In this document: one piece after another, positions 3,705-62,260 of the stretch
Position numbering within the stretch: the stretch's first letter is position 1
How the letters are laid out: every line of letters begins with the position of its first letter
Source: an uncultured delta proteobacterium
GTDB taxonomy: Bacteria > Desulfobacterota > Binatia > Binatales > Binataceae
Reading direction: 5' to 3'
Assembly: GCA_963774705.1 (NCBI GenBank)
Contig: CAVZFW010000002.1
Span: 283,236 to 347,235 of the forward strand
DNA length: 64,000 nucleotides
Notes under the pieces: generated by a model
What the model was told of the DNA's origin: nothing
Databases searched by the model: none
Seen by the model: the letters and a program-made list of their open reading frames with translations, nothing else
Program-made: the position numbers and the translations under genes

Positions 3705-5246
3705 TCATTCACCCGAATCAGGATTTGGATCCTTCCAATCCTCGGGCATCTCGATTTTGGCTTCTATGCCGGCGTTTTGGGCAAGGAGATATAAGAGGTT
3801 ACTGCCGCTCAGCAGTTCCAACGGCTTGCCGTCCGCGAATTCGAAGGATGCTTTTCCATAGCCGCTGGTGGTAATCAAAATCCCCTTTGAGGCCCCTTCG
3901 TTTTGGACCGTTCCGAATAGATCACGCACCGCACTCACACCGACTGTATTCTTATAACGCTTCGCCTGGATCACCACCTTGCCGCCGAAGATCGGTCGCG
4001 GATCGTATGCGACGCAATCTACACCGCCATCTCGCGATGGTCTCGTCTGTCGTGTTTCCAGGCCCATCTTCTCGAACAGGTTTGTAATCAGCGATTCGAA
4101 TTCACGAGGTGTCAGCAGCATTAGATTCGAGCGATTGTCCAAGCCAGAAATGATGTCCTCTTCTTCAACGAATCTTGGATCGACCATGTTAAATTCAAGA
4201 ACCGGTTTGACCGGTGCCAAGTCGGCGGGCTTTTTGGAGACCGAAGCGTTTAGCCCCTTGAGACACGTTTCGGGGTCCACTCGGGAAAGATCCAGTTGAG
4301 CGAATATTTCTTGAGTTGTTCGAAGGGTCACCAGGCAAGGATGCACAGGTCGACCGGTCGCTTGATCGATAGCGTTCACGTGCCCATTTAGGACGATACT
4401 TTCAAGCTGGCCTGAATAATCGGCGTTGAATAGGACGTAGACAACTCTCAGCGAGGTCTGCGCGATGACTAAAGAGTACAAGCGTCTGCGCTCGGCATCC
4501 GATCGCTGCGTCGTTATGATCTCCTTTCTCGCTTTTATATATTTGTAGGCTGCGATTTCAGGCACGATTTCGAAGCCCGGGAAATCGTACTCCACCACCA
4601 GCTGCTTTGATTCCGGTACGAACGCCACTCGGACAGATTCCGGCCAGCCTTCTGGATAATGCTGCGACGCGAGCACTAATTCAGAATAATGTCTGATGGC
4701 ATCAGTTTTTCCAGCTTCATAATCGATCCTTAATCCGTCAATTTCCTGATGTTGGCGGCTGATAGTCTCCTGAACTGACCTCACAATTTCCGCGTGCTTT
4801 ATTACATCCACGTCGTAGCGCGCGCGGGATTCACGGAGAGCGATATGATGACGCTCCTTGGCGCCAGGCATCAGCCGGGCAAAAAAACCCAGCGGCTTGG
4901 GTAAGTAATCTTGGGGACGTGGAGCCGACTCAGTTTTCGCAGCAGACTTTAACTCTTCGAAATCCAAGCGATGATCCCGCCCGAGCACCTCCGTCAAAAT
5001 GTTGTCAAATCGATCCGTACTATCACGGAGGCCTCGATTTCGAGTTTCGACCTCAACTTCCTGATCCTCGTGAAATAATCTTAGTTGTTCCCGGTCTCCG
5101 ACAGCACGAGCAAGATCTCGCTGACCTCGAATTCGTTCCTCTTCCCTACGCAGATGGATTTGCTGGCGGTGTCTCGCTCGTGCTTCTCGCGCGGATGCGC
5201 GTTGAATCGCTGCAAGAGTGCTTACTAAGCTCCGTCGCCTGCTCAT
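3705..5246 (-). CDS. Mrr-family (type IV) restriction endonuclease with N-terminal coiled coil
   Basis: LTPREFESLITNLF, SRDGGVD, VIQAKRY, VSAVRDLFG, KGILITTS = Mrr_cat domain; lower GC than flanks; start chosen at MSRRRS. Confidence 0.9.
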   Translation of the reverse strand: MSRRRSLVSTLAAIQRASAREARARHRQQIHLRREEERIRGQRDLARAVGDREQLRLFHEDQEVEVETRNRGLRDSTDRFDNILTEVLGRDHRLDFEELKSAAKTESAPRPQDYLPKPLGFFARLMPGAKERHHIALRESRARYDVDVIKHAEIVRSVQETISRQHQEIDGLRIDYEAGKTDAIRHYSELVLASQHYPEGWPESVRVAFVPESKQLVVEYDFPGFEIVPEIAAYKYIKARKEIITTQRSDAERRRLYSLVIAQTSLRVVYVLFNADYSGQLESIVLNGHVNAIDQATGRPVHPCLVTLRTTQEIFAQLDLSRVDPETCLKGLNASVSKKPADLAPVKPVLEFNMVDPRFVEEEDIISGLDNRSNLMLLTPREFESLITNLFEKMGLETRQTRPSRDGGVDCVAYDPRPIFGGKVVIQAKRYKNTVGVSAVRDLFGTVQNEGASKGILITTSGYGKASFEFADGKPLELLSGSNLLYLLAQNAGIEAKIEMPEDWKDPNPDSGE

Positions 5247-5314
5247 TTGGTCCTCGCGGACTTGGTTCGAGCGAGATTCTCTTTGCTTGGCTGACCTTGT
5301 GTCAATCCAATCTG

Positions 5315-5825
5315 GCCGCGGAAGGTCGCGCCTCACCTGTAGGCTCGGCGCTCCGCGGTGGCGCAGCGCGTCTAAGAGGGGAAGTCTGAAACCTTCACCT
5401 TTAACGCACCTCGCGGACTCTTAGATCGGCTCGCACGCTCGCCTAGTGATGAGGTTCAGAAAAGAAGTTTGAGTTTTGCGTTCTGCCTCCGTCGCAGCGC
5501 GCGACCGCGCGCGGCGACGGGGCGGCAATGACGTGAATACCGACCGGATACGCGAAGCGAATGCGGTCGGCACCCTTGCGAGCCCGTGCGGCTATCGAGT
5601 GGGGGCGGCGGAAGGTCGCGCCTCACCGATGGGGTCGGCGCTCCAAGGTGGCGCAGCGCATCTTACAAATGGGAAGTCTGAAACCTCCACGAGGTTTCAG
5701 AAAGAACCTTTAGGTGTTGGGTGTGGGCGCGTTCGCCCGCAAGGCGAACGCGCCCTCCTCACAAGATGGCGACCGGCGCGAGATCACGCCCGGATACGTG
5801 AAGCGTATGCGGGCGTGATCTGCGG
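5315..5825. repeat. Two tandem composite structured repeats between mrr and gatA
   Basis: About 80-bp unit GCGGAAGGTCGCGCCTCACC...GGCGCAGCGC...GGGAAGTCTGAAACCT at about 5318 and 5607, each followed by a TCTGAAACC..GGT(T)TCAGA hairpin and a CCGGATACG-GAAG-CG.ATGCGG hairpin. Confidence 0.8.
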
Positions 5826-5832
5826 CGGCGCG

Positions 5833-7290
5833 TTACAAGATGGCGGGGCGGCGCGGCGCCGCGCCGGTCCGCTCGAAGGCGTCACCCGCCCGCAGGATGG
5901 CCTCTTCGCCGAACGGCGGGCCGATCAACTGCAAGCCGATCGGCAGGCCGCTCGCGTCGAAGCCGCACGGCACCGCCATCCCGGGGAGGCCAGCGAGGTT
6001 TACCGAAATCGTGAAGATGTCCGACAGGTACATCTGGAGCGGGTCGGAGGTCTTTTCGCCGAGCTTGAAGGCGGTAGTCGGCGTGACCGGCGTCGCGATG
6101 ACGTCGCAGCTCTCGAAGGCACGCTCGAAGTCGCGGCGGATCAGCGTGCGGACCTTCTGGCCCTTGAGGTAGTAGGCGTCGTAATAGCCGGCGGAGAGGA
6201 CGAAGGTGCCGAGCATGATGCGGCGCTTGACCTCGGCGCCGAAGCCGCGGGCCCGCGTGCGATTGTAGATTTCGATGTTGTTGTCGCCGGGGACGCGCAG
6301 GCCGTAGCGGATGCCGTCGTAGCGCGCGAGATTGGCGCTAGCCTCGGCCGTCGCGACGATGTAGTAGGCCGCGATCGCATAGCTGGTGTGCGGCAGCGAA
6401 ATGTCGACGATTCGCGCGCCCATCGACTCGTACGATTTGAGCGCCGCGCGCACCGCCTGCTCGACTTCGGGTGCGATGCCCTCGACGAAGAACTCCTTGG
6501 GCACGCCGACGCGCAGACCGCTAACGTCGCCGGTCAGCGCCGCCTCGTAATCGGGCACCGGCCGCGCGGAACAGGTCGAATCGCCCGGGTCGGCGCCGGC
6601 CAGATCGCGGAGCATGATGGCGGCGTCGCGCACGGTCTTGGCGAAGGGGCCGACCTGGTCGAGCGACGACGCGTAGGCGATGACGCCGTAGCGGCTGACG
6701 CGGCTATAGGTCGGCTTGAGGCCGACGACGCCGCAAAACGAGGCCGGCTGGCGAATCGAGCCGCCGGTATCGGTGCCGAGCGCGCCGAGACATTGATCGG
6801 CCGCGACCGCCGCCGCCGAGCCCCCCGACGAGCCGCCCGCGACGCGTTCGACCTGATGGGGATTGCGGGTCGGGCCGAAGGCGGAGTTCTCGGTCGAGGA
6901 GCCCATCGCAAATTCGTCCATGTTGGCCTTGCCGACGAAGACCGCGCCGTTGGCGCGCAGGGTCGCGATGACGGTCGCGTCGTAGGGCGGGACGAAGTTC
7001 TCGAGGATCCTCGAGGCGCAGGTCGTGCGAACGCCATGCGTTGCGTAGATGTCCTTGATGGCGAGCGGGATACCGCATAGCGCGGGAGCGTCGCCGGCCG
7101 CGAGCCGGGCGTCGGCGGCGTCGGCCTGCTCATGCGCCTCGCGGGCACATACGGTGATGAAGGCGTTGAGCTTGGGATCGACCAGGGCGATTTGCTCGAG
7201 GCAGGCGCGCGTGAGTTCGCGCGCGGATATCTCGCGTTTGCGCAGGAGGTCGCGCGCGGCGGTGATGGTGAGTCGATTAAGATCGGTCAT
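5833..7290 (-). CDS. gatA: Glutamyl-tRNA(Gln) amidotransferase subunit A
   Basis: Amidase signature [45 protein letters not shown]. Confidence 0.98.
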
Positions 7291-7341
7291 GGGGGAGCCA
7301 ATCGAGAAAACGTGGTTGAGGAACCAGGAATCATAACCTTT

Positions 7342-7372
7342 GTCTGAAATCTCAGGGAGGTTTCAGACTTCC
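7342..7372 (-). repeat. Third, inverted copy of the GGAAGTCTGAAACCTCCnnGAG(G/A)TTTCAGA hairpin
   Basis: Reverse complement reads GGAAGTCTGAAACCTCCCTGAGATTTCAGAC, matching 5672-5701; lies in the gatC-gatA spacer. Confidence 0.8.
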
Positions 7373-7487
7373 TGTTGGGAAGAACGAGCAGCCCAACAGT
7401 CTTGACCTGATCTTTTGGACTGCTCGCGATGCTCGGGTGAACAGCTAAGTCCTGAGGAAACTTCGTCGCGGCAGATTCCAAGCTGAC

Positions 7488-7805
7488 TTAGCTCTCGATA
7501 ATCTTGGGCACTTTGAAGAAATGGCCTTCGCGGGCGGGCGCATTGGCGACCATCTGATCGGGTGCGGAAGGGTTGGTGACGACGTCCTCGCGCATCGGCG
7601 TGCCGGCCTCGCCGACCTGCGCGGTTGGCGGGACCATCGAGGTGTCGAGCCGGTTGAGTTGGTCGATATAGCTCAGGATTTCGCTCAGGTTGGCCTGCAG
7701 GCTTTGCTCCTCGGCGGCTTCGAGTTCGAGGCGGGCGAGGCGCGCGACGTGGCGGACCTGTTCGAGGCTGATTTTGATCGCCGGGGCGGTCTTGGCATCG
7801 GACAT
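7488..7805 (-). CDS. gatC: Amidotransferase subunit C
   Basis: ISLEQVRHVARLARLEL, MREDVV, NAPAREGHFFKVPKII; upstream of gatA. Confidence 0.96.
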   Translation of the reverse strand: MSDAKTAPAIKISLEQVRHVARLARLELEAAEEQSLQANLSEILSYIDQLNRLDTSMVPPTAQVGEAGTPMREDVVTNPSAPDQMVANAPAREGHFFKVPKIIES

Positions 7806-7861
7806 GATGAGGCGAATGTAACATCTGCGGGGCGGCAAGTCAGTGTTCCTCGGAACCAGGT

Positions 7862-7977
7862 CAGCGGCTTGTAGAAGTAGATGGTGCTGCAGAGGCCGCC
7901 TTGCGGGAAAAGCGCGTAACCGGGGATCTCGCCGAAGCGTCGCCATCCGAGGCGATGTAGATACGCTCGGCATCGCC
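7862..7977 (-). pseudogene. C-terminal remnant of a GNAT acetyltransferase
   Basis: With one frameshift reads GDAERIY-RLGWRRFGEIPGYALFPQGGLCSTIYFYKPL, typical GNAT C-terminus; no N-terminal part present. Confidence 0.55.
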
Positions 7978-8048
7978 GCGACGATTCATCCGCAGTCCTG
8001 AAGCAGGGAGTACGAACCGGAAGTCCCGTGCGCGGCGAACTGGAGGCG

Positions 8049-8792
8049 TCAGGCTTTTTTCTTCGCCGCGACGCGCGGACGCCATTGATAGAAGGAACGC
8101 AGATCGACCGCGAAGGTCCACGCGTTGCGCGGCTGATCGATGACGTGGACGATCTCGCCGCAAATCGAATCGGTCGAGACGAAATGATCGGGATCCTCGT
8201 CGTGGGCGGCGTCCGTCACGCGCGGCAGCCCGACCGCGCCGTCGACGTCGAGGGCGACCGCATGGACGCCGCGATGCATGAACTCGTAGGCGACGGATTC
8301 GGCCAGTGCGCGTTGCGCAACCTTCGAGGCGTTGTAGGCGGCGTACTGCAAGGGGCCGCTGCGCGATTCGGAACCGAGCACGAAGATGATGGTGCCTGCG
8401 CCGCGCTCCGCCATCCCGGCGACCACCGCCTGGGTGCAGAAGAACGGCCCGTAGCAATTGACCTTCATCTGGAAATCGAAATCCTCTTCGCTGATTTCGA
8501 CAAACGGCTTGCGCAGGTAGGCGCCCGCGTTGTTGATCAGGACCGCGATCGGACCGAGTTCGCGCTCGACGGTGGCGACGGCGGCGGCCACTTGGTCGCG
8601 CTTCGACACGTCGGTCGGAGTGACGACCGCCTTGCCGCCAGCCTGGCGGATGAGCTCGGCGGTCTCGTCGAGTTGCGACTTGGTGCGCGCGATCAGTCCG
8701 CAGGCGTAACCCTCGCGCGCCATCCTGAGCGCGATATCGCGGCCGATGCCGCGACCGGCGCCCGTAATCAATGCGACCTTCGCTTCTGACAT
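8049..8792 (-). CDS. SDR family oxidoreductase
   Basis: TGAGRGIG, INNAG, YNASK. Confidence 0.92.
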   Translation of the reverse strand: MSEAKVALITGAGRGIGRDIALRMAREGYACGLIARTKSQLDETAELIRQAGGKAVVTPTDVSKRDQVAAAVATVERELGPIAVLINNAGAYLRKPFVEISEEDFDFQMKVNCYGPFFCTQAVVAGMAERGAGTIIFVLGSESRSGPLQYAAYNASKVAQRALAESVAYEFMHRGVHAVALDVDGAVGLPRVTDAAHDEDPDHFVSTDSICGEIVHVIDQPRNAWTFAVDLRSFYQWRPRVAAKKKA

Positions 8793-8921
8793 GGGGCGCA
8801 TCTTAGCTTGGCCGCGAATTTCTGCAAAGCTGGAGCCGTGGCGCGCCGAAGAAAGTGCGCTTGGCGAGGACCTCAAGCGGTGTTACCTTTTTAATAGAGT
8901 GCGATCGTGGAGTGCGGGTCG

Positions 8922-9986
8922 ATGAAAGGTAAATTGCAGTTCGATTTACGACGCAACCTCGGCGCAGCGGGATTGATCAAAGCAGCGCACAAAATTCCGG
9001 GGTTCGCGGTAATAGCGATACTGGCGCTGGCCGCGCCGGCGTTCGCTCAAGTCTCGTTCGATGCGCATGATTCAGGGGACGTCCCGGCAGACGTGGCCAG
9101 CGCCTCGCCGACGTTTGCGGCCCCAACTGGCTCCGGAGATGCCGGGTCGGATACCTTCGCACCGGCAGCCGGCGCGGCGATCGTTGCACCGGATAGCGGT
9201 TATGCGTTGCCGCCACCGGACGATGGTTCGCTGGCCGATCCGGCGGCGTCGCCCGGCGACGCGGGCACCCCGGATGCAGCTACGAGCGCCGAGAATCCGG
9301 CCACAGGGGAGGCCTCCGTCGCAGATGGCAGCACTGCGGGCGATGCGCTCCCGAGCAGTTTGCCGCCAATCGATCTAGCGTCGCCGCTCGGTGGGATCGC
9401 GCCAGTCGCGTCAGCCGATCGAGATTCCGGCGCCGCGTCGCATTCCGGTTGGGATCGCGTCGGCGACAGCGAGAGCGACGCTGGTAGCGATAGCGATTCC
9501 GGGAATCCGGTGCTCGAAGTTCCCCGGGCAGTTCCTTCGCCAGACGCATCGTCGGGGAACGACGCAAACCAATCGGCGCAAGGCGGCGATTCGGCGCCGC
9601 CCGATCAGGTCGGCAGCGTGGATGAGTATCAGAACGAGCAGGACTATAACCCGATGGCGATTTACATCAGTCCGGCGACCGGTCCGCCCCTGCTGAATCC
9701 ACCGTTTGCGGCGAGCACCTTTGGAAATCACTCAACCGCCAACGTGTCTACTCAACCAGGTGTCGGACCAATGCTTCCGTCCGGCATCGGTGGTGTGCGG
9801 CCGTTTGCAGGCGGGATGAATTCAGCGATTATGCCGACCAGTCCTATGTTCCCGCGCGGCATGCCGATGCAGAGTTATCGCCCGACGGCCCCGATCTACG
9901 CGATGCCGATGATGCGGAGTTACCAGCCGACGGCCCCGCGCAACCCGGCGCCGATCCCTGGTGGCTGGTGGAATCGCGCACGCTGA
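8922..9986 (+). CDS. Secreted low-complexity (Ala/Asp/Ser/Pro-rich) hypothetical protein
   Basis: Long ORF, signal-like AVIAILALAAPAFAQ, disordered composition, duplicated SY(R/Q)PTAP near C-terminus. Confidence 0.65.
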   Translation: MKGKLQFDLRRNLGAAGLIKAAHKIPGFAVIAILALAAPAFAQVSFDAHDSGDVPADVASASPTFAAPTGSGDAGSDTFAPAAGAAIVAPDSGYALPPPDDGSLADPAASPGDAGTPDAATSAENPATGEASVADGSTAGDALPSSLPPIDLASPLGGIAPVASADRDSGAASHSGWDRVGDSESDAGSDSDSGNPVLEVPRAVPSPDASSGNDANQSAQGGDSAPPDQVGSVDEYQNEQDYNPMAIYISPATGPPLLNPPFAASTFGNHSTANVSTQPGVGPMLPSGIGGVRPFAGGMNSAIMPTSPMFPRGMPMQSYRPTAPIYAMPMMRSYQPTAPRNPAPIPGGWWNRAR

Positions 9987-10194
9987 TCGTCGCCTGGCTC
10001 CGGTGAGTGGGTGGTCGAGCCGAGACTATCAGCAATTCACCAGCACGATTCCGGGCCGAATCACCTCGATAAGTCGCGCTGGCAGGGCGGGGCTTTCCCT
10101 TGATGGCGCAATCGGTATATCTAGAGATCCCTCGCGGCATCTCGAGCGCCGCTACTCTCCGAGTAATTGAGGGTCGCAGAGGCCGAACCCGAAT

Positions 10195-10968
10195 ATGCTG
10201 ATAACGATTGATGTCGGTAACAGCCACACGGTGATCGGGATTTACGAAGGGGAACGGCTGATCCAGCACTGGCGCATCTCGACCGAAGCCGAACGAACCA
10301 CCGATGAGCATGGCGTGATGCTCAATGCGCTCCTGCAGGGCGCGGGACTCACGACTCCGTTGCGGCCGGAGGGCGTGGTCGTCGCGTGCGTGGTGCCGCC
10401 GCTCAACCAGACGATCGAGATGCTCTGCGAGCGCTACTTCAGTTGCCAGCCGCTGATGGTCGGGCCGGGCATCAAAACCGGGATGCCGATACTCTACGAG
10501 AATCCCAAGGAAGTCGGCGCAGATCGGATCGTCAACGCGGTGGCCGCGTTCGAGCGCTACAGCAGCGCCACGATCGTGGTCGATTTCGGCACGGCGACGA
10601 CCTTCGACTACGTGACCGGACGGGGCGAATACGTCGGCGGGGCGATCGCGCCCGGTCTGGGCATCTCGATGAACGCGCTCGTCGAGCATGCGGCGAAGCT
10701 CTATCGGGTCGAGCTGGCGCGGCCGCGGGATGTCGTCGGCCGCACGACCGTCGGCGCAATTCAGTCGGGGCTCATCTTCGGGTACACCGCGCTGGTTGAC
10801 GGGCTGGTCGAACGTATCGTACGAGAGCGGGGAGAGAAGACCCGCGTAATCGCTACCGGCGGGTGGGCCGATTTGATCGCGCCCGAGTCGGAAACGATCG
10901 AAGAAGTGGATGAGTTCCTGACGCTTAAGGGTCTGCGGCTGATATTCGAACGCAATCGGCGCCTCTGA
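10195..10968 (+). CDS. coaX: Type III pantothenate kinase
   Basis: IDVGNS, YENPKEVGADRIVN, VDFGTATT, IATGG, LTLKGL. Confidence 0.96.
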   Translation: MLITIDVGNSHTVIGIYEGERLIQHWRISTEAERTTDEHGVMLNALLQGAGLTTPLRPEGVVVACVVPPLNQTIEMLCERYFSCQPLMVGPGIKTGMPILYENPKEVGADRIVNAVAAFERYSSATIVVDFGTATTFDYVTGRGEYVGGAIAPGLGISMNALVEHAAKLYRVELARPRDVVGRTTVGAIQSGLIFGYTALVDGLVERIVRERGEKTRVIATGGWADLIAPESETIEEVDEFLTLKGLRLIFERNRRL

Positions 10969-10995
10969 AGGGAATCGAACCTCGGAAGGAGAGCT

Positions 10996-11871
10996 ATGGA
11001 ACAGGCTAAGCGCGTCGTCACCGATAACATGATGGGACTCAAGCTCCCCGACCATGCGCGGCTTTCGCCGCGGGTGGCGACGGTGCTCGGGCATAACCCG
11101 GGCCCGTTCACGGGACCGGGCACGAACACCTATCTGATCGGCACCGGAACGCGGCCGATTCTGCTCGACACGGGCATCGGCGTGGCGAAATGGGCCGAGA
11201 ATCTGCCGCTCGGGATGCGCGAGCATTGCCGCGCCGACGAACTCGATCGGATCGTAGTGACCCATGCGCATCGCGATCATATCGGCGGGGTCAAGGATGC
11301 GCATCGGCTGTTCGGCGAGGTTCCGGTGCTCAAGCGGCCGTGGCCCGGACAGGACGATCCCGCGGGCATTCCGGTGACCGTGATCGATCAGGGCGCGGAG
11401 GTGACGACGGCGGGTGCGACGTTGCGCGCGGTGTTCACGCCCGGCCATGCGCCCGACCATCTGTGCTATGTCCTGGTCGAAGAAAAAGCGCTCTTCACCG
11501 GCGACGTCGTGCTCGGCGCGGGCACGACGATTATTCCGGACGAAACCGGCGACCTCGGCCAATATATGGACTCGCTCCGGCGTTTGCTGGAGCTTGATGT
11601 CGAGACGATTTACCCGGCGCACGGGCCAGTGATTCGCGACGCCAAGAAGAAGCTGCGCGAATATATCGCGCATCGCGAACTGCGCGAGCGGCAGGTGATT
11701 GCTGCGCTGCAGGACGGTCCGCGCGAGGTGATCGAGATCGTCAAGGCGATTTACACCGACGTGCCCGAGTTCCTGCATCCGGCAGCCGCGCAATCGATGC
11801 GATCGCATTTGCGCAAGCTGCACAAAGATGGCCGGGTCGTGGAAGATGAGAATCGCTGGAGGCTCAATTAG
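10996..11871 (+). CDS. MBL-fold metallo-hydrolase (LACTB2-like, C-terminal winged helix)
   Basis: NPGPFTGPGTNTY, THAHRDHIGG, TPGHAPDH, FTGD, PAHG. Confidence 0.9.
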   Translation: MEQAKRVVTDNMMGLKLPDHARLSPRVATVLGHNPGPFTGPGTNTYLIGTGTRPILLDTGIGVAKWAENLPLGMREHCRADELDRIVVTHAHRDHIGGVKDAHRLFGEVPVLKRPWPGQDDPAGIPVTVIDQGAEVTTAGATLRAVFTPGHAPDHLCYVLVEEKALFTGDVVLGAGTTIIPDETGDLGQYMDSLRRLLELDVETIYPAHGPVIRDAKKKLREYIAHRELRERQVIAALQDGPREVIEIVKAIYTDVPEFLHPAAAQSMRSHLRKLHKDGRVVEDENRWRLN

Positions 11872-16224: not shown

Positions 16225-17550
16225 CTAATAATAATCCACCGGGTCGATCTGCCGCTTCGCCCCGTACCAGAACAGCATGTTCTCAGTCAGCCCCTGCCAG
16301 GTGAATTTCCCCGGCGGCATCAGCAGCCGCTTGAACATCGACTTGAACGAATAGAACTCCTTGGTGCAGCGCCACACGCCCTCTTCGACCTGCTGCGGCG
16401 ACAGATTCTTCGGCACGAACATGCACCGAAAGTTATTCGTGTACATGTCGGCGTCCGGGATAATCACGCGCCCTTCGTCCTCGAGCTGCGTGCGCATCGG
16501 CGTGCCCCGGCGCGGCGTCACCGTATTGAAGAACGCCTCGGGCGCCTTGACCTCGTGCAGGAACTTGAGCGTGTCGTCGAAAATCGCCGGATGGTCGTCC
16601 TCGAGCCCGAACAGGAAATTGAGCGAATAGTAAATCCCGTAATGTTCGAGGCGCTTGAGCAGCTTCTTGTAGTCCTTGGCGTGATTCTGAATCTTGTTCA
16701 TCGACAGCAGGCTGTCCTGGCTGATCGATTCGACGCCGATATTGACGTGGAACACGCCGGCCTTCGCCGCCAGCTCCAGCATCTCCTCGTCGTGATTCGA
16801 ATTGACCGTCCACAGGCATGAGAAGCGGATATTGAGCGGGGCGAGCGCGCGGAACAGTTCCTTGGCGAACTTGTGCTTGCCGGTGATCTGGTCGTCGATA
16901 AACTGGAAGCGGCGGAAGCCGGTCACCGCCATCACCTGCTTGATCTCCTCGACGATCTCCTCGACCGGCCGCGTCCGATAGCTGCCGTTGTAGAAGACCG
17001 GAATCTCGCAGAACGAGCAGCGATACGGACAGCCGCGGCTGGCCTGCACCGGCACCGCCTTGAACAGGTACTTGTTCAGCTTGAGCAGTTCGTGACGCGG
17101 GCGCGGCAGGCCCTTCAGGTCATGCAGCTTGTCGGCCTTGTAGGTCTGCTTGAGCTTGCCGTCCTGCCAGTCGCGCAGCAGCGGCTCCCACACCAGGTCG
17201 GCTTCGCCCTGCACTACGGCGTCGGCATGCTTGAGCGCCTCTTCGGTCTGCAGCGTCGCATGAAATCCGCCCATCACGACCGGGATGCCGCGTTTGCGGA
17301 ACTCATCGCCCAGTTGATACGCGCGCAGCGACGCGCCGATCGTGGTCGTCATGCCGACGAGGTCCCAGCCCCCGTCGAAGTCGAGATCCTCGAGCCGTTC
17401 GTCGCAGAGCGTTACGTCGAAGTCGTCGGGCGTCAGTCCCGCCATCAGCGGAATCATCAGCCCCATGATCAAACGCCAGCGCGTCTTGTGCGGTGTGCCG
17501 TCGAGATGGACCGTAGTCGGTTGAACCAGCAGAATTCGCGGCTTCTTCAC
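16225..17550 (-). CDS. B12-binding-domain radical SAM protein (class B methyltransferase-like)
   Basis: N-terminal cobalamin domain (VVMGGFHAT, DAVVQGEAD), QASRGCPYRCSFC, IGVES; GTG start with AGGGAGG RBS. Confidence 0.9.
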   Translation of the reverse strand: MKKPRILLVQPTTVHLDGTPHKTRWRLIMGLMIPLMAGLTPDDFDVTLCDERLEDLDFDGGWDLVGMTTTIGASLRAYQLGDEFRKRGIPVVMGGFHATLQTEEALKHADAVVQGEADLVWEPLLRDWQDGKLKQTYKADKLHDLKGLPRPRHELLKLNKYLFKAVPVQASRGCPYRCSFCEIPVFYNGSYRTRPVEEIVEEIKQVMAVTGFRRFQFIDDQITGKHKFAKELFRALAPLNIRFSCLWTVNSNHDEEMLELAAKAGVFHVNIGVESISQDSLLSMNKIQNHAKDYKKLLKRLEHYGIYYSLNFLFGLEDDHPAIFDDTLKFLHEVKAPEAFFNTVTPRRGTPMRTQLEDEGRVIIPDADMYTNNFRCMFVPKNLSPQQVEEGVWRCTKEFYSFKSMFKRLLMPPGKFTWQGLTENMLFWYGAKRQIDPVDYY

Positions 17551-17591
17551 AAACCCTCCCTTGCTTCGATAGCGCGCCCGGTCGTGCGGTA

Positions 17592-18826
17592 CTAGACCCG
17601 CACCTCGTCCTGTGCCCGGCGCCGATTTGTCATCCACCACAGGCTGTAGGCGAAAACCCAGGATCCGAAAGCGGCGCTCCACGCGAAAACCGGCAGCCAA
17701 TTTAATAGCGCGAGCACCAACACGAGGTAAGCGAAATCGCGGCCGGTCACCCGTTCCACCGCGCCGATCCACTGCTCCGCCTGCGCGCCGGTCAGATTGA
17801 GCGCGCGGTTAACCGAGATCGCACAAAAGGCGAAACCCGCCAGCAGAATCGCCAGCAGGTAGAAGTAAGTCGAGCTCTGACTGGCGCGATAGCAGCCGAT
17901 CATCAGCCCGATGAAAATCGCGACATGCACGATGTTGTCGGTCATCACGTCGAGCTTCTTGCCGGCCTCGGATTCGACCATCCGCAACCGCGCCAGCTCG
18001 CCATCGACGCCGTCGAGCGTGACTACAGACCAGGAACAGCGCTGCGCCGATCAGGCGCATCCAGTAACTCGTCGTCGCGAGCATCGCCGCGCAGAAAAAA
18101 CCCAGCGCGGTGTTCGCTAGTGTGACGTGATTCGGCATCACGCGGGTGCGCGCTAGGCGATAACTCAGCCGCCACGACAGCCGCCGATCGACCAGCCGCG
18201 CCAGCACCGCGTCGGTCTCGAGGCTCTCGTTCCGCACCGACTTCGCGAGCCGCAGTTCCGCCTCCTCGCGATCCTCCGGCCGGCCGTTGAGCGCGAACGG
18301 CAGATAGCCGATGGGTCGAATGGCCGATCCGGTTTCCCCGCCCAAAGCCCCGTCAGCCGAGGCGGCATTCGCCGGTCCTACGCTGCCCGCACCAGCATCG
18401 CCGCCTTGCATCAGATGACCCAGCGGCCCGAGGCGTATCATGCCGCCGCAGTCGTCGTCCGCGCTCGTAAAGCAGAGCTCGCGCCCGGGATTTGTCGCGT
18501 AATCGGCAAGCATGCGCCGCAATTGCGATTGCGCCATCACCAGGTTGCCGCGCAACGCGATACTCGGTGCGGACGGATCGATTCCCTCGGGCCATCCACC
18601 TGCCGCGTTTATCGAATCGACGATCGTCACCTGCGGATTCGCGCCGAAACTGCCGAGCGCGGCGCGAATCGTCGCATGCTCGGCCGGCGGGCGCTTCGAT
18701 AATGAAACGGCGCACTCCGGCGCGCGAGCACTGGATCATGAGGCGTTCCAGCAACGGACGTCCGAAGATCGTTTCATGCGCGCGGGAAGGCGCGCTAATC
18801 AATGCGGTTTCAATCAAGGCGGTCAA
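17592..18826 (-). CDS. CDP-alcohol phosphotransferase with degenerate N-terminal NTP-transferase-like domain (frameshifted in assembly)
   Basis: Joined frames: IFGRPLLERL..AGVRRFII; VMPNHVT; LDGVDGELARLRMVESEAGKKLDVMTD = DGxxARx8GxxxDxxxD motif. Confidence 0.85.
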
Positions 18827-18850
18827 ATTAGAACTAGGTTTTTAAGCGAT

Positions 18851-18906
18851 TCTGACCGCAGAGTCAATGTAACCCGAATGTAATCTGACCGCACAGTCAA
18901 TGTAAC
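18851..18906. promoter_or_regulatory. Twin operator-like direct repeats
   Basis: TCTGACCGCA(G/C)AGTCAATGTAAC twice, 33 bp apart, each containing TGAC-N6-GTCA; in divergent promoter region. Confidence 0.6.
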
Positions 18907-19188
18907 GAGAGCACAAAAACAACTTAATTGGTGGGCGATATTCCGGCTGGGCATCCGCGTCCATAGAATCACATGCGACCCGCCAGCGCGAGCACGGTTA
19001 AGGTCGCGATTAAGCTTGCTTGCAACGCGCGCCCGATTGTAGAGACCGTCCTCGTCCAACTGTTAAACTCTTCGACGATTCACACAACACGCAGGTTCGT
19101 TCACCACCGTACGCAGTCGATAGCGAACCCCGCGCGTCAACGTAATCGCACGACTTGGTCGTCATTCGAGCATCGCGAGCGTCAGTCA

Positions 19189-20072
19189 GTGAAAAAAACC
19201 ATCCTCTTTGATTTCGGCGGCACCCTCGACTCTCCGCGCCACTGGCTCGATCGCTTTCTGGTCGCACTATCGCGCCGCCGGTATCGAGATCACGCGCGAG
19301 CAACTCGACCCCGCCTTCGATCACGCGACCCGCATCGCCTACCGCTCGACCCGAATGCTCTCATCCTATGGGCTAATTGAACTGGTGGATTACCTCGTCC
19401 GCCTGCAAATCGACCATCTAAGCCGTGACGGCGCACCGGAATTGCGCGAAATCCTGCGCGCCGCGTCCGCCGGGATGCGCCTGCCGGAGATCGCCGGCTG
19501 GATCACCCAATCGTTCGTTGCGGAGTCGCGCGAGGGGTTCGCGGCCAGCCGAAAGTTACTGACGGCTCTCTCCAGGCGCTTCCGGATGGGGGTTGTTTCC
19601 AATTTTTATGGTAACCTGAAGAACATTCTTGCCGAGTCCAATCTGGCGCAGATTCTTCGGCGTCGTCGCCGATTCCTCGCAACTTGGGATCTTCAAGCCG
19701 GAGCCGGGTATTTTCGATCACGCGCTGAAACGCCTCGGCTCCATCCCTTCCGAAACCGCGATGGTCGGTGATTCGCTGGCCAAGGATTGTGCGCCCGCCC
19801 ACAGACTCGGAATCACCACGATCTGGCTCCGCCACGCCCCTCTCTCGGATGCGGCTCGCCTGCAGTATTCCGCAATCGCGCAGACGGGAGACCTCATTGG
19901 CGACGCCCGCGTGATCGAGCGGCGCTCGCCGCGACCAGACCGGCCGCCGGACCGGCCAACCGACGACGAAATTGCGGGTACAGAACAAAGCCAATTAACC
20001 TCCGGTTTCACTGCGGATTTCACGATCGAGGGTGTCGAGGAGTTGGAGCATTTGAACTGGTGGCGGTCGTGA
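19189..20072 (+). CDS. HAD-family hydrolase (frameshifted)
   Basis: ILFDFGGTLDS, GVVSNFYGNL, GIFKPEPGIF, MVGDSLAKD across three frames. Confidence 0.85.
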
Positions 20073-20884
20073 GCGACGCGAAAGATGCCCCAGATGCAAG
20101 CCATGGGAGGCACATACCAGGCGCGCAGCCAGCACCATCCGCCAAGCGCATAACAGGGCTCTCGGGCGCGATAATCGCCGCCGGTCGTGGCGAGCGACTG
20201 CGCGCAGCCTCGGAAGGTGTCCCCAAGCCGCTGGTCGAGCTCGGCGGCGAGCCGCTGCTGGTCCGCCAGGCCCGCGCGATTGCCCGCGCTCGGCGCGTAC
20301 TCCGGTGCATGCGATCATCAATTCGGAAACCGCGCGGATGATTCGCGAGCGCGACCTTGACGATGCCACCTGAAGTCGAGTCTGCACGTGCGCGATACCG
20401 CCAATTCGATGGAGTCGCTGCTGACGCTCGGCGAGCATATCGCACCCGGCCGCTTCCTGATGACGACGGTTGACGCGGTCGTGCCGCCGGCCGAATTGGC
20501 AGCGCTTTGCCGTCCGCGCGCCTCGATCTCACCGACCCGGTCAATCTCGATGCTCTTGACGGCGTGCTGGGAGTGGTAAAATGGCGCGGCGACAGGCACC
20601 CGCTGTTCGCGGAAGTTGCACCCGATGGTACTATATGTGCCTTGGGTGACCACGAATCGCGGCAGGTCACGGCGGGGGTTTATCTGTTTTCGACACGCAT
20701 ATTCTCGTTTGGCGACAAGGCGCGCACCGTCGGGCTCGACGCGATGCGGCGGTATCTGGCACTGCTGATCAGCGAAGGCATGCGCTTTGCTGCTGTTGAG
20801 CTGAGCGATGTGATCGACGTTGATGAGGCAGTGGATCTGGACGCGGCGCGCGCGCTAGTCGCAAGTCAGGGCGGTCGGTCCTGA
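20069..20884 (+). CDS. NTP transferase (cytidylyltransferase-like), frameshifted
   Basis: AIIAAGRGERL...PKPLV, TANSMES, FLMTTVD, TAGVY, VIDVD; GTGA overlap with HAD stop. Confidence 0.85.
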
Positions 20885-20927
20885 CCGCGATGGTCGCTGG
20901 CGGTCTTGCGAGGACCGGAGCATCTCG

Positions 20928-21779
20928 ATGAATATCCAGGTGATGGGAGTCTATCGCGAAGCAGGAGTATTCACCCGGCAAGGTCGAGGCGGATGCCGCG
21001 ATCCTCGATGCGGTGATCGGTCAACTGCGCGACTTCGGGGGCCGAAACGACCACGATCGACGCGGCGCGCTTCGTCGATGGCAGGTTTACGACGCCGCAT
21101 CTGGTGCTCGCGATGTGCCAGGGCGAAGCCGGCCTCGCGCGCCTCTCGGCGGTCGAAGAGTCGGGTGCGGTCGTTATCAATTCCGCGCTCGCTATCCGCA
21201 ATTGCTATCGCGACCTGCTCGGCGCCGGTCTGATGCGCGCCGGCGTGCCGGTGCCGGAAGGCGTCGTCGTCCGCACTGCTGCGCCGCTCGACCTGAAGCC
21301 GTTGCGCACGATCGATCTGTCCGCTCCGATGTACGTCAAGCGCGGCAACCTGCACGCGCTTGGGACCGCTCGACGTGGTGCGCGTCGAAGGACTCGAGCA
21401 ACTCGAAGCGACGCTGACTACGCTTCGCGCGCCGCGGCGTCCAACTCGCCTTCGTGCAGCAGGAGGTCGTCGGCGAAGTCGTCAAGTTCTACGGCGTCAG
21501 CGGCGGTGAGTATTTCGCGACCGTCGCCGAAGGCGCGGCCGCATCTTTCCGACCCGCAAAAGCGCGCGCTCAACCAGGCGGCCGCGAATGCCGCGACCGC
21601 CCTGGGCCTCGAAGTCTGGGGCGGCGACGCGATCGTCAAGGGCGATCGTCTTCTCGATCGTTGACTTCAACGACTGGCCGAGCTTCAGCCGTGTGCGCGA
21701 CGATGCCGCCCGCGCGATCGCGCGCCGTTCGCTGCTGCATCTGCGCCGCCATCCGGCGACCCGTGACCTCAATATCTGA
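20928..21779 (+). CDS. ATP-grasp protein, ITPK1/RimK-like (frameshifted)
   Basis: VVINS, GVPVPE, YVKRG, VQQEVVGEVVKFYGV, LGLEVWGGDAIV, IVDFNDWPSF. Confidence 0.7.
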
Positions 21780-21895
21780 TCGCAGCCCTTGCGCCATACT
21801 TGACTTGAGCGCCGCTGCGCGACAGTCCTTACGGGTTGCCGCCGATGCGGGCGGCGCACCATTTTCGAGCGAACGGCGAGTGCGCGACGGCAGAG

Positions 21896-23321
21896 ATGGC
21901 GAAAAGACCAGGCGACGGGAACGGCGCAGCTATCAACTGCAAAACGGGTTAGCGACGGTGCGGTCGCCAGGACCGGACTACCGAAAATCGTAACGGCGGT
22001 GCCGGGTCCGAAATCACGCGAAATTTTCGCCGAGGAGCAGCGCTATATCGCGCCGGGCCGGCAGCGCATCTCGTTGCTCGCCGGCGTGGCTTTCGAGTAT
22101 GGCAACGGCGCGACATTGACCGACGCAGACGGTAACACCTACGTCGATTTCTTTGCTGGCGTGGCGGTCGCGAGCCTCGGCCATGGACATCCGGCGCTCG
22201 CTGACGCAATCGCCCGGCAGGCCGCGCGCCTGATGGTCGGGACATTCGCTACACGCGAACGGGCCGAGGCCTTCCGCCTGATGAGCGAAGTGGCGCCCGC
22301 GAACCTCAAGCGCGCGCATCTCTATAGCGGCGGGGCCGAAGCGGTTGAAGCGGCGCTGCGACTCGCGCGGTCCGTCACCAAGAAAGATGAAGTCGTAAGT
22401 TTCTGGGGCGGCTTTCACGGCAAAACGATGGGCGTGCTAGGGTTGATCGGCGACGAGTCCAAGCAAGGCTACGGACCATTGCCGGGTGGGCGTTACTCGG
22501 TGCCCTACGCCGATTGTTATCGGTGCCCGTTCAAGATGACCTATCCCGACTGCGGGCTGTATTGCGTCGAGTTCGCCCGCAAGCAGATTAAGAATTCCTC
22601 CGCCGGTGCGATCGCCGCCGTGATCGCCGAGCCGATGCAGGGTACCGCCGGCAACGTGATTCCCCCGGACGACTGGCTGCCGGCGATCAAGTCGGTCGCC
22701 AAGGACAATGGCGCGCTGCTGATCGCCGACGAGATGATCACCGGCTTTGGGCGCACCGGAAAATGGTGGGGCGTCGAGCATAGCGGCGTCACTCCCGATA
22801 TCGTTACGGTGGGTAAGGGCATGGGCTCCGGCTTCCCGGTCTCGGGCGTGCTGATGAACGACGAAATCGGCAATGCGGAGCCTTTCGCCAAGCCTAGCGC
22901 GTCGTCGTCGAGCTACGGCGGAAATCCGTTGGCGGCGGCGGCACTGGCGACGACAATCAAGACGATCGAGGGCGAAAAGCTGGTCGAGAATTCACGCAAG
23001 GTCGGCGCCCTGATGCTTAAGCGGCTATTCGAGTTGCAGGAGAAATACGAATTTCTCGGCGACGTGCGCGGCCGCGGATTGCTAATCGGCCTCGATCTCG
23101 TGCGTGATCGCAAATCGCGGCGCGAGTTGGGCCGTAAGGTGATGGAAACGATATTCACCGAGTCGCTGAAGCGCGGTCTGCTGCTGATGGGCTACTTCCC
23201 GCGCGTGCGCATCAACCCGCCGTTGGTGATCACCGGGGAGCAGGCCGCGGCCGGAATCGCGATTATCGACGAAGTCTTCGCCCACGTGCGCGACCATGTC
23301 GATTGGCGCAACGGTGATTGA
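21896..23321 (+). CDS. Class III PLP-dependent aminotransferase (likely ATG 21896 with one indel; open frame from 21999)
   Basis: DADGNTYVDF, SGGAEAVEAA, GFHGKT, AEPMQG, LIADEMITGFGRTG, PDIVTVGKGMGSG, SYGGNP. Confidence 0.93.
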
Positions 23322-23324
23322 GCG

Positions 23325-23801
23325 ATGCCACACGATGCTGGCAATATGGCGCTCTTCCTCGACCTCGCCGGCACGCTGGTCGCAATGGACGAGACGCGTC
23401 AACTGCCGATTGACGGTCAAGGCAACGTAACCATCAACCTACTGCCGGGGGTGCGCGAAAAGCTGGCCCCGATTCACGACCATCTGATGTTCGTCGTCAC
23501 CAACCAGGCGGGCGTCAAGCGCGGACGCTTTCGGCTGGCGCAAGTTGAAGCCGCGATGGCGGACCTCGACCGCCAGTTGGGCGATATCCTGACCGGCTGG
23601 CAGATCTGCCCCCACGATGACGCCGACGGCTGCGAATGCCGCAAACCGAAGGGCGGCATGATCCTGGAATTGGCGGATCTTCACGGAGTGCATCTGGAAG
23701 GCTCGACGATGGTGGGCGACCAGGAGATCGACGCGCAGGCCGCGCGGGCGGCGGGCGTCGGCAAGTTTATCTATGCCGCCGATTTCTTCGGCGGGAAATA
23801 G
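23325..23801 (+). CDS. HAD-IIIA phosphatase, GmhB/HisB-N-like
   Basis: LFLDLAGTL, VVTNQAG, CPH..CECRKPKGGM (Zn site), MVGD...D. Confidence 0.85.
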   Translation: MPHDAGNMALFLDLAGTLVAMDETRQLPIDGQGNVTINLLPGVREKLAPIHDHLMFVVTNQAGVKRGRFRLAQVEAAMADLDRQLGDILTGWQICPHDDADGCECRKPKGGMILELADLHGVHLEGSTMVGDQEIDAQAARAAGVGKFIYAADFFGGK

Positions 23802-30697: not shown

Positions 30698-30703
30698 GCT
30701 CGC

Positions 30704-32070
30704 ATGCCGACCGATCAACTGAACCAGCTTCCGATGCTGATGCGTCTCGGCGTCGCACTCGCGATCGGCTTGATGATCGGACTGGAGCGTGGATGGGAGT
30801 TTCGTGAACTGCATACGGAGCAGCGGACCGCGGGTTTGCGAACTTTCGGTGCGATCGGCTTGCTCGGCGGCGTCGTTGCCGAACTCGGAGGCGATCACGG
30901 CGCGCTAATAATCGCGGCGATAGCGCTCGCATTGGGAATAGTGCTAGCGGCGGGCTACTGGCGCGAGTCCGAGATCGATCGCAATGTTAGCCTGACGACC
31001 TCCATTGCTGCGCTTGCCACCTACGGCCTGGGAGCGCTCGCCGGGCGCGGTGAACTACTCGCCGCATCGTCCTCGGCGGTGGTCCTCACGATGTTGCTCG
31101 GTTTCCGTCCGGAGCTGCACAGCCTGATTCGCGCGATCGATCGCGAAGAGCTGCTTGCGACCTTCCGGCTACTGTTGATTTCGATCGTGTTGTTGCCGGT
31201 GCTGCCCAATCGCGGCTACGGCCCGTGGGGGGCGTTCAATCCCTTCGATATCTGGTGGATGGTCGTAATGGTGGCCGCCGTCTCTTATGTCGGCTACTTT
31301 CGCGACCCGACTGATGGGTGCGGAACGCGGCATTCTGATTACCGGATTGTTCGGCGGCTTGGCTTCATCGACGGTCGTGGCGCTGAGCCTCGCACGACAG
31401 GCCGCTCGACGATTTGCGCGCGCCGAATCTGCTGGCCGCGGGAGCGACGATCGCCAGTGCGATCATGTGGCCGCGAATCTTTCTCATCGTGAGTGCGGTG
31501 GCGCGGAACCTCGGCTGGGAGTTGGTCTGGCCACTGGGCGCTGCAATGTTAGTGGCAATTGCCGCGGCCCTCTGGATCGCGCATCGCGGCCGGAATGAGG
31601 AAACGGCCCTCGCGGACGGCGGCGAGCAGATGAAAGCAGCCAATCCGCTCGACCTCGGCACGGCGCTTCGCTTCGGATTGATTCTGACCGCGATAATGGT
31701 TGCTGCGCGAGCAGCGAGCGCGTGGGCCGGGCCTTCCGGGCTGCTGCTGGTAGCGGGAATCTCGGGTTTGGTGGACGTCGATGCGATCAGTCTTTCCGTC
31801 GCCACCATGAGTACCCATCAGATCGTCGCACCCGCCGTGGCTATTAGTGCGATTCTCCTGGCCGCCGTGGTCAATACGGTGCTCAAGGCCACGATGGCGC
31901 TCGCGATCGGCGGCGCTCCGATGGGACTGCGCTTCCTGGCCGCGTCGCTCGCGATGGTCATTGCATGCGGCGCCGGTTGGTTGATTGCGACTGCACCTGG
32001 TGTGACCCCGAATTCTCTGTGCAGACATTGTGCGCGAACGCCCCGTGGTCCCGCCGAAGAAAAGAAGTAA
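30704..32070 (+). CDS. MgtC/SapB-family membrane protein with DUF4010 (frameshift near 31300)
   Basis: GLMIGLERG, AGLRTF, LPVLPN, GGLASST, GLVDVDAI. Confidence 0.85.
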
Positions 32071-37476: not shown

Positions 37477-37497
37477 AAAGATCCTGGAGACGGGGCG

Positions 37498-39860: not shown

Positions 39861-40225
39861 ATTTCACCCAACTCAAAGGTATTCGATCGAGTGTGCCTAA
39901 GCTACGCAGCCGGTATACCAGACAGCAGCGGCCCTTGCTTAGCTACTCCGACCTTTAGTGCCTTTTCGCCTTCACGCTAATGAGTTAAACGGCGCACCCA
40001 AGTGAGAACTTGCAATAAATTCCCATGGTCTCATCGGCGATTTTTCGTTCGCGATGTTGACTGACGAGACAACGGTAATCGCTTCGCATGCATAGGCGTC
40101 GCGAGTCCCCAACGACTAACCGCGGGCTCATAGTAGGCGTTACCGGTCTTAGAAGTTATGCGGATAAGACGGCCCGTTGCTGTGAGCAAAGTACGCATTG
40201 CGCGACGCTCACGCCGCAGAATCTG

Positions 40226-40850: not shown

Positions 40851-40863
40851 CGGATGCGCCTGG

Positions 40864-42324: not shown

Positions 42325-42543
42325 TCGTTCAAGTGATGATCATCCGGGTCGGTCTGCATCGATGCAGCTTACGCCGCTATCGTAGCGTAATGGTCCGGTG
42401 GTGGGCGAGATACCGTGGGAAATATCGTGCAGATTACTGGCGTCGAATCTCAAATGAACGATTTGGTCGGGTTCTATCGGGAGCGGATGCTGAACTGAAT
42501 CGCTCTCGTCATCGGCTTTCGAGGAATGAGTAGTCCGGCGCAC

Positions 42544-62229: not shown

Positions 62230-62260
62230 GGTCAAATCCCCCCTTGTTGGATGGTCTACG

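Follow-up and report, generated by a model that had tools for sequence, protein, structure and literature searches.

A 64,000-nucleotide stretch of genomic DNA from an uncultured member of the Binataceae (contig CAVZFW010000002.1; G000:C2:283236-347235), which was analyzed as a whole and is called the window in the following, harbours two divergent gene arms encoding a B12-binding radical SAM protein and a cytidine diphosphate (CDP)-alcohol phosphotransferase on the one side, and two HAD proteins (HAD1, HAD2), a nucleoside triphosphate (NTP) transferase, an ATP-grasp protein and a class-III aminotransferase on the other. Together with a GFO/IDH/MocA oxidoreductase, HAD1, the NTP transferase, the ATP-grasp protein, the aminotransferase and the phosphotransferase form a conserved unit of single-copy genes which spans eight families of the class Binatia (Binataceae counted). 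With a probability of about 0.5, this unit represents a pathway of the di-myo-inositol phosphate (DIP)/Kennedy type, in which a CDP-activated, amino-tailored polyol, cyclitol or sugar would be joined via a phosphodiester, and which would be tied to an HpnL-type partner and a hopanoid-containing envelope. Binatia, which are uncultured, occur widely in soil; to our knowledge, nothing is known about their lipids.

Based on the genes observed, their motifs, conservation and fusions and the neighbourhoods in which they lie, substrates, order of steps and product may be proposed as follows: (i) the NTP transferase would convert a phosphorylated polyol, cyclitol or sugar to its CDP derivative, (ii) the AF2299/DIPPS-type transferase would join this derivative and a second alcohol to a phosphodiester, (iii) an HAD protein would remove leftover phosphate, (iv) the oxidoreductase and the class-III aminotransferase would replace one of the hydroxyls of the group by an amine, and (v) the RimK/LysX-like ATP-grasp protein would most likely form an amide on that amine. 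The product would probably be passed to an HpnL-type membrane protein and become part of the hopanoid-containing envelope. Inositol is the favoured scaffold, since the top three NCBIfam matches of the transferase, the IolG match of the oxidoreductase and the co-occurrence of myo-inositol-phosphate synthase (MIPS) point to it. This chemistry, i.e., CDP-alcohol transfer, amination and probably amide formation, matches no described pathway, and the portions of the literature covered by a search on hopanoids, CDP-alcohols, HpnL and Binatota contained no account of such an operon. A new polar lipid, if confirmed, could serve as a biomarker for the phylum in soils and sediments.

Conservation of the operon in Binatia

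Conservation was analyzed across 121 genomes of the class, 15 of them from Binataceae (including that of the window, G000) and 106 from other families. The single-copy ATP-grasp gene served as operon marker and was found in 47 of these genomes, distributed over families f1 (14/14 plus G000), f2 (8/8), f5 (1/1), f9 (2/14), f10 (13/13), f11 (2/5), f13 (5/5) and f18 (1/1). It is located within about 4 kb of a phosphotransferase match in 30 of the 32 marker-positive genomes outside Binataceae and in 13 of the 15 Binataceae genomes. Operon architecture was read from 11 complete loci and a partial one (L056) in seven non-Binataceae families, where the genes follow each other on one strand in the order HAD1, NTP transferase, ATP-grasp, aminotransferase, GFO/IDH/MocA oxidoreductase and phosphotransferase. 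The preliminary description of the window had made co-occurrence of the aminotransferase with the core in other genomes the test of its pathway, and at all 12 loci the gene is indeed collinear with the core. From the collinear loci in seven families, the aminotransferase is a core member and the oxidoreductase part of the set. Of the seven-gene unit originally proposed, the aminotransferase thus stands while the radical SAM protein drops out (see below), and the oxidoreductase is added by the operons of the relatives. Within the family of the window, DNA matches to the cluster are present in all 18 other genomes (18/18), so that a chance arrangement can be dismissed.

The best match of the oxidoreductase is IolG, and together with the aminotransferase it would fit a route in which oxidation followed by transamination leads to an amino-polyol or aminocyclitol. 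In three metagenome-assembled genomes (MAGs) of Binataceae (G016, G317 and one other; loci L014, L049 and L020), its gene directly follows that of HAD2. In the genus of the window it is instead found beside hpnH (G000:C2:372116-373139, with hpnH at 374009; likewise G005:C7:58816-59820), which makes it a candidate for the conversion of ribosylhopane to bacteriohopanetetrol (BHT).

Functional coupling of the pathway steps is confirmed by gene fusions. The HAD1 domain is fused in other proteins to an NTP transferase, a PfkB kinase, a phosphotransferase or an LPG_synthase_TM domain (four kinds), and the phosphotransferase is fused to LPG_synthase_TM in five of ten long representatives examined. 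The fusions with PfkB suggest that a kinase step may precede or accompany HAD1 in related pathways.

Enzymes of the unit and comparison with known systems

Protein analyses were carried out throughout with the intact copies of a same-genus relative (G005, locus L011). The phosphotransferase scores 50.8 bits against PF01066 (cut-off 22) and contains the motif D-G-x2-A-R-x8-G-x3-D-x3-D; in 26 sequences, D253, G254, D256, G257, A260, R261, G270, D274 and D278 are invariant (full motif DGxDGExAR..G..D..D). Its closest solved structures are AF2299 (E 2e-12) and IPCT/DIPPS (E 1e-7), and the transferase of the unit is of this AF2299/DIPPS type. The top three NCBIfam matches are IPCT/DIPPS, archaetidylinositol-phosphate synthase and PIP synthase, all of which use inositol-1-phosphate and all of which remain far below cut-off. 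In case of IPCT/DIPPS (NF041135), 70.2 bits compare with a threshold of 580, only the C-terminal domain is matched, and the N-terminal domain has kept the cytidylyltransferase fold but lost the loop required for an active enzyme. This N-terminal domain had been described from the window sequence as a degenerate NTP transferase, which is borne out: its 130 residues match the neighbouring NTP transferase in a profile-profile comparison (hhalign, 91 % probability, E 1e-6), and none of the 26 sequences has retained the GxGxR..PKP signature loop.

The signature of the separately encoded NTP transferase is intact in an alignment of 14 orthologues, and its weak named relatives are sugar-1-phosphate nucleotidyltransferases. 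The core logic of an NTP transferase, a CDP-alcohol phosphotransferase and an HAD protein, as recognized in the preliminary description, is therefore supported, with the phosphotransferase being closest to inositol-phosphate-using enzymes.

Both HAD proteins have retained the nucleophile and motifs II–IV (motifs invariant in 18 orthologues of HAD1; seven orthologues of HAD2 aligned). The general acid two positions after the nucleophile (Asp+2) is replaced in every orthologue: HAD1 has Gly at this position, HAD2 has Ala, Gly or Thr. Both proteins may be other than ordinary phosphatases. HAD2 scores 86.8 bits with TIGR01656 (cut-off 84.15) and possesses the CPH..CxC zinc loop; with the GmhB equivalog it reaches 82.5 of the required 178 bits, and its motif I reads D-L-A/G/T-G-T instead of DxDxT. 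The nearest protein-atlas clusters of HAD1, to be taken as a lead, are from Bacteroidota (score 0.98, TM 0.87–0.90) and include HAD fusions to CDP-alcohol phosphotransferase and to LPG_synthase_TM. Fusions of HAD1-like domains with PfkB-family sugar kinases (~520 amino acids) were also observed in metagenomes (P0402, P0404-P0415).

The ATP-grasp protein had been regarded as a kinase, for which its predicted fold offers no support. The AlphaFold model (predicted local distance difference test, pLDDT, 83) has Ddl and LysX as top Foldseek matches, and VIA-align places it next to RimK (Z 18.4; 251 residues, root mean square deviation 3.7) and LysX/ArgX (Z ~17; 17.2 for LysX), all of them carboxylate-amine ligases. 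At the sequence level, it scores 20 bits with TIGR00768 (cut-off 143), has no Pfam match and retrieves no solved structure with an E value below 0.2. An inositol-phosphate kinase was considered and rejected, as the 50 best VIA-align matches include no structure of this kind; a kinase would still be compatible with this result.

The aminotransferase is a typical omega-transaminase (Aminotran_3) with GABA-type transaminases as nearest solved structures. Its likeness to HpnO is judged by class and by neighbourhood only, an hpn neighbourhood being present in relatives and absent from the window. The combination of an ATP-grasp protein and a class-III aminotransferase is also known from the LysW-type lysine/ornithine pathway; this candidate was dismissed, since no genes for the carrier protein, the kinase or the reductase were seen. 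An aminopentanetetrol head group was considered as a further candidate; going by title, none of the papers listed for this term deals with its biosynthesis.

The unit was compared with five known systems. IPCT/DIPPS and AF2299 of Archaeoglobus fulgidus likewise combine a cytidylyltransferase-like N-domain with a short CDP-alcohol phosphotransferase of about six helices and the full motif. Here, however, the N-domain lacks the nucleotide-binding loop, the active NTP transferase is encoded by a gene of its own, and DIP synthesis has no counterparts of the aminotransferase, the oxidoreductase, the ATP-grasp protein and the HpnL-like partner.

The closest published logic is that of the alternative inositol-lipid cluster of Bacteroides vulgatus, which, according to the excerpts available (PMC9246714), comprises an NTP transferase, a CDP-alcohol phosphatidyltransferase and an HAD protein, with an LPG-synthase-like gene nearby. 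The same excerpts note HAD-transferase fusions in the Bacteroidetes alternative cluster, state that it adjoins MIPS and call it functionally unconfirmed. In the Binatia unit, in contrast, an aminotransferase, an oxidoreductase and an ATP-grasp protein are added, the context is hopanoid-related, and the trio is not directly beside MIPS (24 kb apart in G000, adjacent only in G276). The likeness to this cluster claimed from the window is plausible, as the SNFYGN and TVD motifs are present, while homology to the BVU proteins stands as a protein-atlas lead.

The hpn side-chain genes share with the cluster a class-III aminotransferase (HpnO) and a B12 radical SAM protein (HpnJ/P/R), and HpnL-like and HpnK genes lie beside the operon in relatives. 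They differ in that the radical SAM protein of the cluster fails the HpnJ and HpnR models and that true HpnH, HpnI, HpnJ and HpnK are encoded elsewhere in the genome; no hpn cluster with a CDP-alcohol phosphotransferase was found in those parts of the hopanoid literature that were covered.

Putative gene clusters for 2-aminoethylphosphonate head groups in Nitrospirota (L024, L026 and L027) resemble the unit in the order of an aminotransferase, an NTP transferase, an extended CDP-alcohol phosphotransferase and an HpnL-like protein, but contain phosphonopyruvate decarboxylase halves and a class-V aminotransferase, and are devoid of ATP-grasp, GFO and HAD1 genes. At these three MAG loci (~5400-11000), which look like an aminoethylphosphonate head-group pathway, the decarboxylase halves come first, and the NTP transferase is present in L024 and L027 only.

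Activation of NDP-heptose involves a kinase, the GmhB phosphatase and a nucleotidyltransferase, and kanosamine formation by NtdABC a GFO dehydrogenase, an aminotransferase and an HAD phosphatase. The same enzyme classes recur in the Binatia unit in the same logical order, with a GmhB-like HAD2 and with fusions of HAD1 to PfkB or NTP transferase; the end enzyme here is, however, a phosphotransferase rather than a glycosyltransferase, and both HAD proteins lack Asp+2.

Genomic context and alternative readings

In the relatives, the operon is often embedded among hopanoid-related genes. An HpnL-like gene directly follows the phosphotransferase gene at six of the 11 operon loci, succeeded by HpnK at four of them. 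HpnK (306 versus 232.6 bits), HpnH (381 versus 225) and HpnB (391 versus 379) exceed their NCBIfam cut-offs, and HpnL, HpnM, HpnN and HpnG are the best matches of further neighbours, each below cut-off; in case of HpnL (TIGR03476), the partner protein reaches 185–187 of 195.65 bits. Neighbours of the operon or of phosphotransferase relatives also include farnesyl diphosphate (FPP) synthase, an MlaA-type lipoprotein and squalene-hopene cyclase (SHC). HpnH and FPP synthase genes follow the arm in G016, and five genomes of Binataceae encode SHC at a distance of 10–14 kb from the cluster. In G000, the GFO, HpnH, SHC and HpnK genes share the contig of the cluster, 65–80 kb downstream of it, and canonical HpnJ and HpnI are encoded on another one.

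SHC was detected in 42 of the 47 operon-positive compared to 36 of the 74 other genomes, and MIPS in 42 of 47 compared to 27 of 74; the genomes counted include one, G309, that is marked as unpublished. An inositol-phosphate synthase had been stated to be missing, which is correct for the cluster itself but not for the genome, since a MIPS domain is encoded at G000:C2:275311-275637, 8 kb before the start of the window and 24 kb upstream of the cluster. Two papers from 2025 (PMC12324291, PMC12583986), as far as their text was available, describe HpnL as being without known function and the enzyme converting ribosylhopane to BHT as not established. The repeated pairing and fusion with HpnL-type proteins offers a first concrete and testable idea for HpnL.

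Several points weigh against the proposed DIP/Kennedy-type pathway. Kin genomes are not independent, so that the co-occurrence figures overstate the case. The substrates are putative, all family scores are far below curated cut-offs (IPCT/DIPPS, 70 versus 580 bits), and a plain phosphatase role of the two HAD proteins is uncertain due to the missing Asp+2. Five operon-positive genomes, three of them at least 99 % complete, have no SHC match; hopanoids are thus not strictly required. In the genus of the window, no hopanoid gene is located beside the cluster, the nearest being the oxidoreductase gene beside hpnH at a distance of ~65 kb. MIPS is adjacent at a single locus (G276), where it abuts the hpnN gene following the operon.

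The architecture of the phosphotransferase is a further point of this kind: its membrane domain comprises ~190 residues with 5–6 hydrophobic segments. In the available part of the published account (PMC4634129), the six-helix class is assigned to soluble acceptors and extra helices to lipid-acceptor enzymes, and AF2299 and DIPP synthase are reported to share a cytidylyltransferase-like domain and not to process lipids. The six-helix architecture therefore makes a lipid acceptor less likely than a lipid donor or a soluble product and speaks against a simple transfer from a CDP derivative to a lipid, which keeps alive the rival possibilities of a soluble, DIP-like product and of a lipid, possibly hopanoid, CDP-donor.

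The latter alternative is unlikely. The enzymes would act directly on intermediates of the C35 side chain of hopanoids, i.e., HpnG would provide hopanyl-ribose-1-phosphate, which would be converted to CDP-ribosylhopane and coupled to a soluble alcohol to yield a phospho-hopanoid, with the oxidoreductase as reductase and an HpnO-like aminotransferase. Such a reductase would fill the step from ribosylhopane to BHT, the enzyme of which is not established according to the accessible text of PMC12583986. The oxidoreductase orthologue adjoins hpnH in G000, G005 and G016 and is part of the operon elsewhere, the sugar-1-phosphate nucleotidyltransferases are the nearest named relatives of the NTP transferase, the six helices suit a soluble acceptor combined with a lipid donor, and HpnG, HpnB, SHC, HpnK and HpnN are neighbours at related loci. 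Conversely, our literature search yielded no phosphorylated hopanoid, and we know of none. Five of the 47 operon-positive genomes are devoid of an SHC match, and the relatives of the HAD and NTP transferase modules as well as the PfkB fusions point to soluble sugar chemistry.

The preliminary description had offered hopanoid tailoring as an alternative; it gains strong support from gene context, whereas membership of the radical SAM protein in HpnJ is refuted (84 versus 577.6 bits, with a true HpnJ encoded elsewhere). Canonical HpnJ reaches 699–725 bits in four relatives and is split into two pieces in G000. It is doubtful that the operon forms a first phospho-hopanoid head group by coupling a CDP-intermediate to or from a bacteriohopanepolyol precursor, with HpnL as flippase or partner and the oxidoreductase as ribosylhopane-to-BHT reductase; if true, this would provide functions for HpnL and for the missing reductase together.

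Improbable as well is the full seven-gene pathway of the preliminary description, in which the radical SAM protein would methylate or rearrange the head group formed by the other six. Orthologues of this protein occur in all 15 Binataceae genomes (G000 included; 84–98 % identity), where the gene invariably starts 27–92 bp after that of the phosphotransferase, and in G293 and G284 the two have stayed together even though the other arm is 74 kb off or on another contig. Outside the family, by contrast, no orthologue was found in 105 of 106 genomes, although 32 are operon-bearing; the remaining genome encodes a homologue (44 % identity) which pairs with a methyltransferase and is separated from the operon by unrelated genes. 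In G259, a homologue of 41–44 % identity is located 4.3 kb away, with TerC, NhaR and LpxA genes in between; in G133, unrelated genes occupy the 6 kb to SHC.

Homologues are further known by name from Geobacter, Desulfobacca, Nitrospirota and Elusimicrobia, and relatives with 51–53 % identity are located in Desulfobacterota near a Methyltransf_23 gene, HcyBio (homocysteine synthesis) and MarC. At loci L028-L033, a divergent Methyltransf_23 gene is present in four of the five annotated loci (not L028) and HcyBio is near in four of five (not L033). Homologues with 41–53 % identity pair with methyltransferase, HcyBio and MarC genes rather than with the phosphotransferase, which is present neither at these six Desulfobacterota loci nor at four loci of distant homologues (L034-L037). 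Inclusion of the radical SAM protein in the conserved unit can therefore not be maintained: the protein accompanies the unit in Binataceae only, with a single occurrence among 106 genomes elsewhere and with relatives in unrelated neighbourhoods.

The radical SAM protein is the most conserved of the region (84–98 % identity versus 42–84 % for its neighbours), which suggests a separate, constrained function and speaks against a role in the pathway. It is probably a Binataceae-specific neighbour rather than a core step, its participation in the pathway being unlikely or, at best, a modest possibility, and it represents an uncharacterised family with a probably constrained function. Assignments to HpnJ (TIGR03471; 84 versus 577.6 bits), HpnR (51 versus 650 bits; no separate HpnP model among the matches), BchE (best NCBIfam match; 105 versus 481 bits) and PhpK (far under cut-off) were rejected, and no NCBIfam family was reached. 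A fusion of a radical SAM domain with a phosphotransferase (P0287) was likewise discarded, since its radical SAM domain is unrelated to that of the cluster.

There is little likelihood that the product of the operon is a soluble, amino-modified phosphodiester resembling di-myo-inositol phosphate or diglycerol phosphate and that the hopanoid neighbourhood is incidental. DIP is a solute of hyperthermophiles, and during its synthesis the phosphorylated precursor DIPP is dephosphorylated by an HAD phosphatase. The presence of an HAD partner, the occurrence of MIPS in 42 of the 47 operon-positive genomes, and an architecture shared with AF2299 and DIPP synthase (cytidylyltransferase-like N-domain plus six helices), both non-lipid enzymes as far as the account in PMC4634129 was available, agree with such a product. 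The soil origin of the Binatia, the polytopic HpnL/LPG_synthase_TM domain as a repeated neighbour and even fusion partner, and the recurrent siting among genes for hopanoid synthesis and transport in several families do not. That the genes are unrelated neighbours without a common pathway is very unlikely, for although all family assignments are generic, collinearity over eight families, overlapping or nearly abutting frames and four kinds of fusion contradict it.

Gene layout and frame damage in the window

The seven genes (Table 1) are located at the positions given in the preliminary description, as verified by open reading frame (ORF) listing, Pfam and tblastn with the intact proteins of a relative. 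Also the spacings hold, with 41 bp separating the stop of the phosphotransferase gene from the start of the radical SAM gene and 3 bp separating the aminotransferase gene from that of the second HAD protein. Identity to the G005 proteins amounts to 97.5 % for the radical SAM protein and 90.7 % for the aminotransferase. The cluster is flanked by panB, panC and panD upstream, and by genes for two F420-type luciferase-like oxidoreductases and fdhD downstream.

Table 1 Features of the divergent gene cluster in the window (nucleotide positions of the window)
Feature	Position	Strand	Remarks
B12-binding radical SAM protein	16225-17550	-	441 amino acids, intact; Pfam Radical_SAM and B12-binding
Fusion of degenerate cytidylyltransferase-like N-domain and CDP-alcohol phosphotransferase	17592-18826	-	Pfam PF01066; ~6 membrane helices; 392 amino acids in G005
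Divergent intergenic region between the two arms	18827-19189	.	Between the first codons of both arms
HAD1 (HAD-IA)	~19190-20072	+	Motif I D-F/Y-G-G-T (DFGGT in the window); frameshifted in the window
NTP transferase, probably cytidylyl	~20120-20884 (start approximate)	+	Pfam NTP_transf_3; AAGxGERLR..PKPL intact
ATP-grasp protein	20928-~21780	+	281 amino acids in relatives; no Pfam match
Class-III (omega) aminotransferase	~21906-23321	+	Intact; Pfam Aminotran_3 (E 4e-98); start codon uncertain (ORF caller: 21999)
HAD2 (HAD-IIIA, GmhB/histidinol-phosphatase-like)	23325-23801	+	TIGR01656; CPH..CxC loop; motif I D-L-A-G-T

The genes for the phosphotransferase, HAD1, the NTP transferase and the ATP-grasp protein are each split over two to three frames in the window, while those for the radical SAM protein, the aminotransferase and HAD2 as well as the flanking genes are intact. 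In case of the phosphotransferase, tblastn matches are distributed over frames -1, -2 and -3, with insertion errors near 18026 and 18688. HAD1 is shifted near 19264 and 19650, the NTP transferase contains several insertion errors between 20283 and 20520, and the ATP-grasp gene at least five. When the DNA was aligned with that of four congeneric genomes, ~22 insertions of a single base were seen in the window alone, all of them within 18026-21649. Indels had been suspected beforehand without being described, and the suspicion proved right for four of the seven genes.

Public soil metagenomes (four runs) contain nearly identical contigs that lack one base at 18027, 18958, 19007, 19032, 20964, 21033, 21359, 21419, 21542 and 21650, as well as two at 20908 (11 sites altogether). 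Some of these contigs have 0–5 mismatches over 200–550 bases, and one of 209 bases shows 2 gaps but not a single mismatch. When the window was compared with G005 over the entire 82-kb contig, multi-frame damage of this kind also emerged in further blocks (30.7–32.0, 35.7–37.5 and 40.2–47.4 kb). The public contigs without the extra bases and the patches of like damage elsewhere rule out pseudogene decay of the four genes and indicate that the frame breaks are assembly or polishing errors and that the genes, to judge from these alignments, are functional in the organism.

The genome of the window (4.0 Mb, 17 contigs) is rated 65 % complete, and due to the patchy frame damage, annotation of this assembly will under-call genes. 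In the long-contig MAG G010, it is the radical SAM gene that is distributed over four frames, its neighbours being intact. In the damaged blocks of the window (30700-32000, 35700-37500 and 40200-47400), the genes for MgtC/DUF4010, a radical SAM protein and a sigma-54 activator, among others, are spread over two to five frames when compared with their G005 orthologues.

Two differences from the four relatives are of another kind. The N-domain of the phosphotransferase contains a 42-bp in-frame insertion (18338-18379), and the C-terminal region of HAD1 has ~100 extra bases at 19838-20000, which probably represent real variation, since a public contig of 92 % identity covers this stretch. Elsewhere in the window, an Mrr-type restriction endonuclease (3705-5336), a serpin (56903-58156) and a Tae4-family type VI amidase effector (61747-62235) are encoded.

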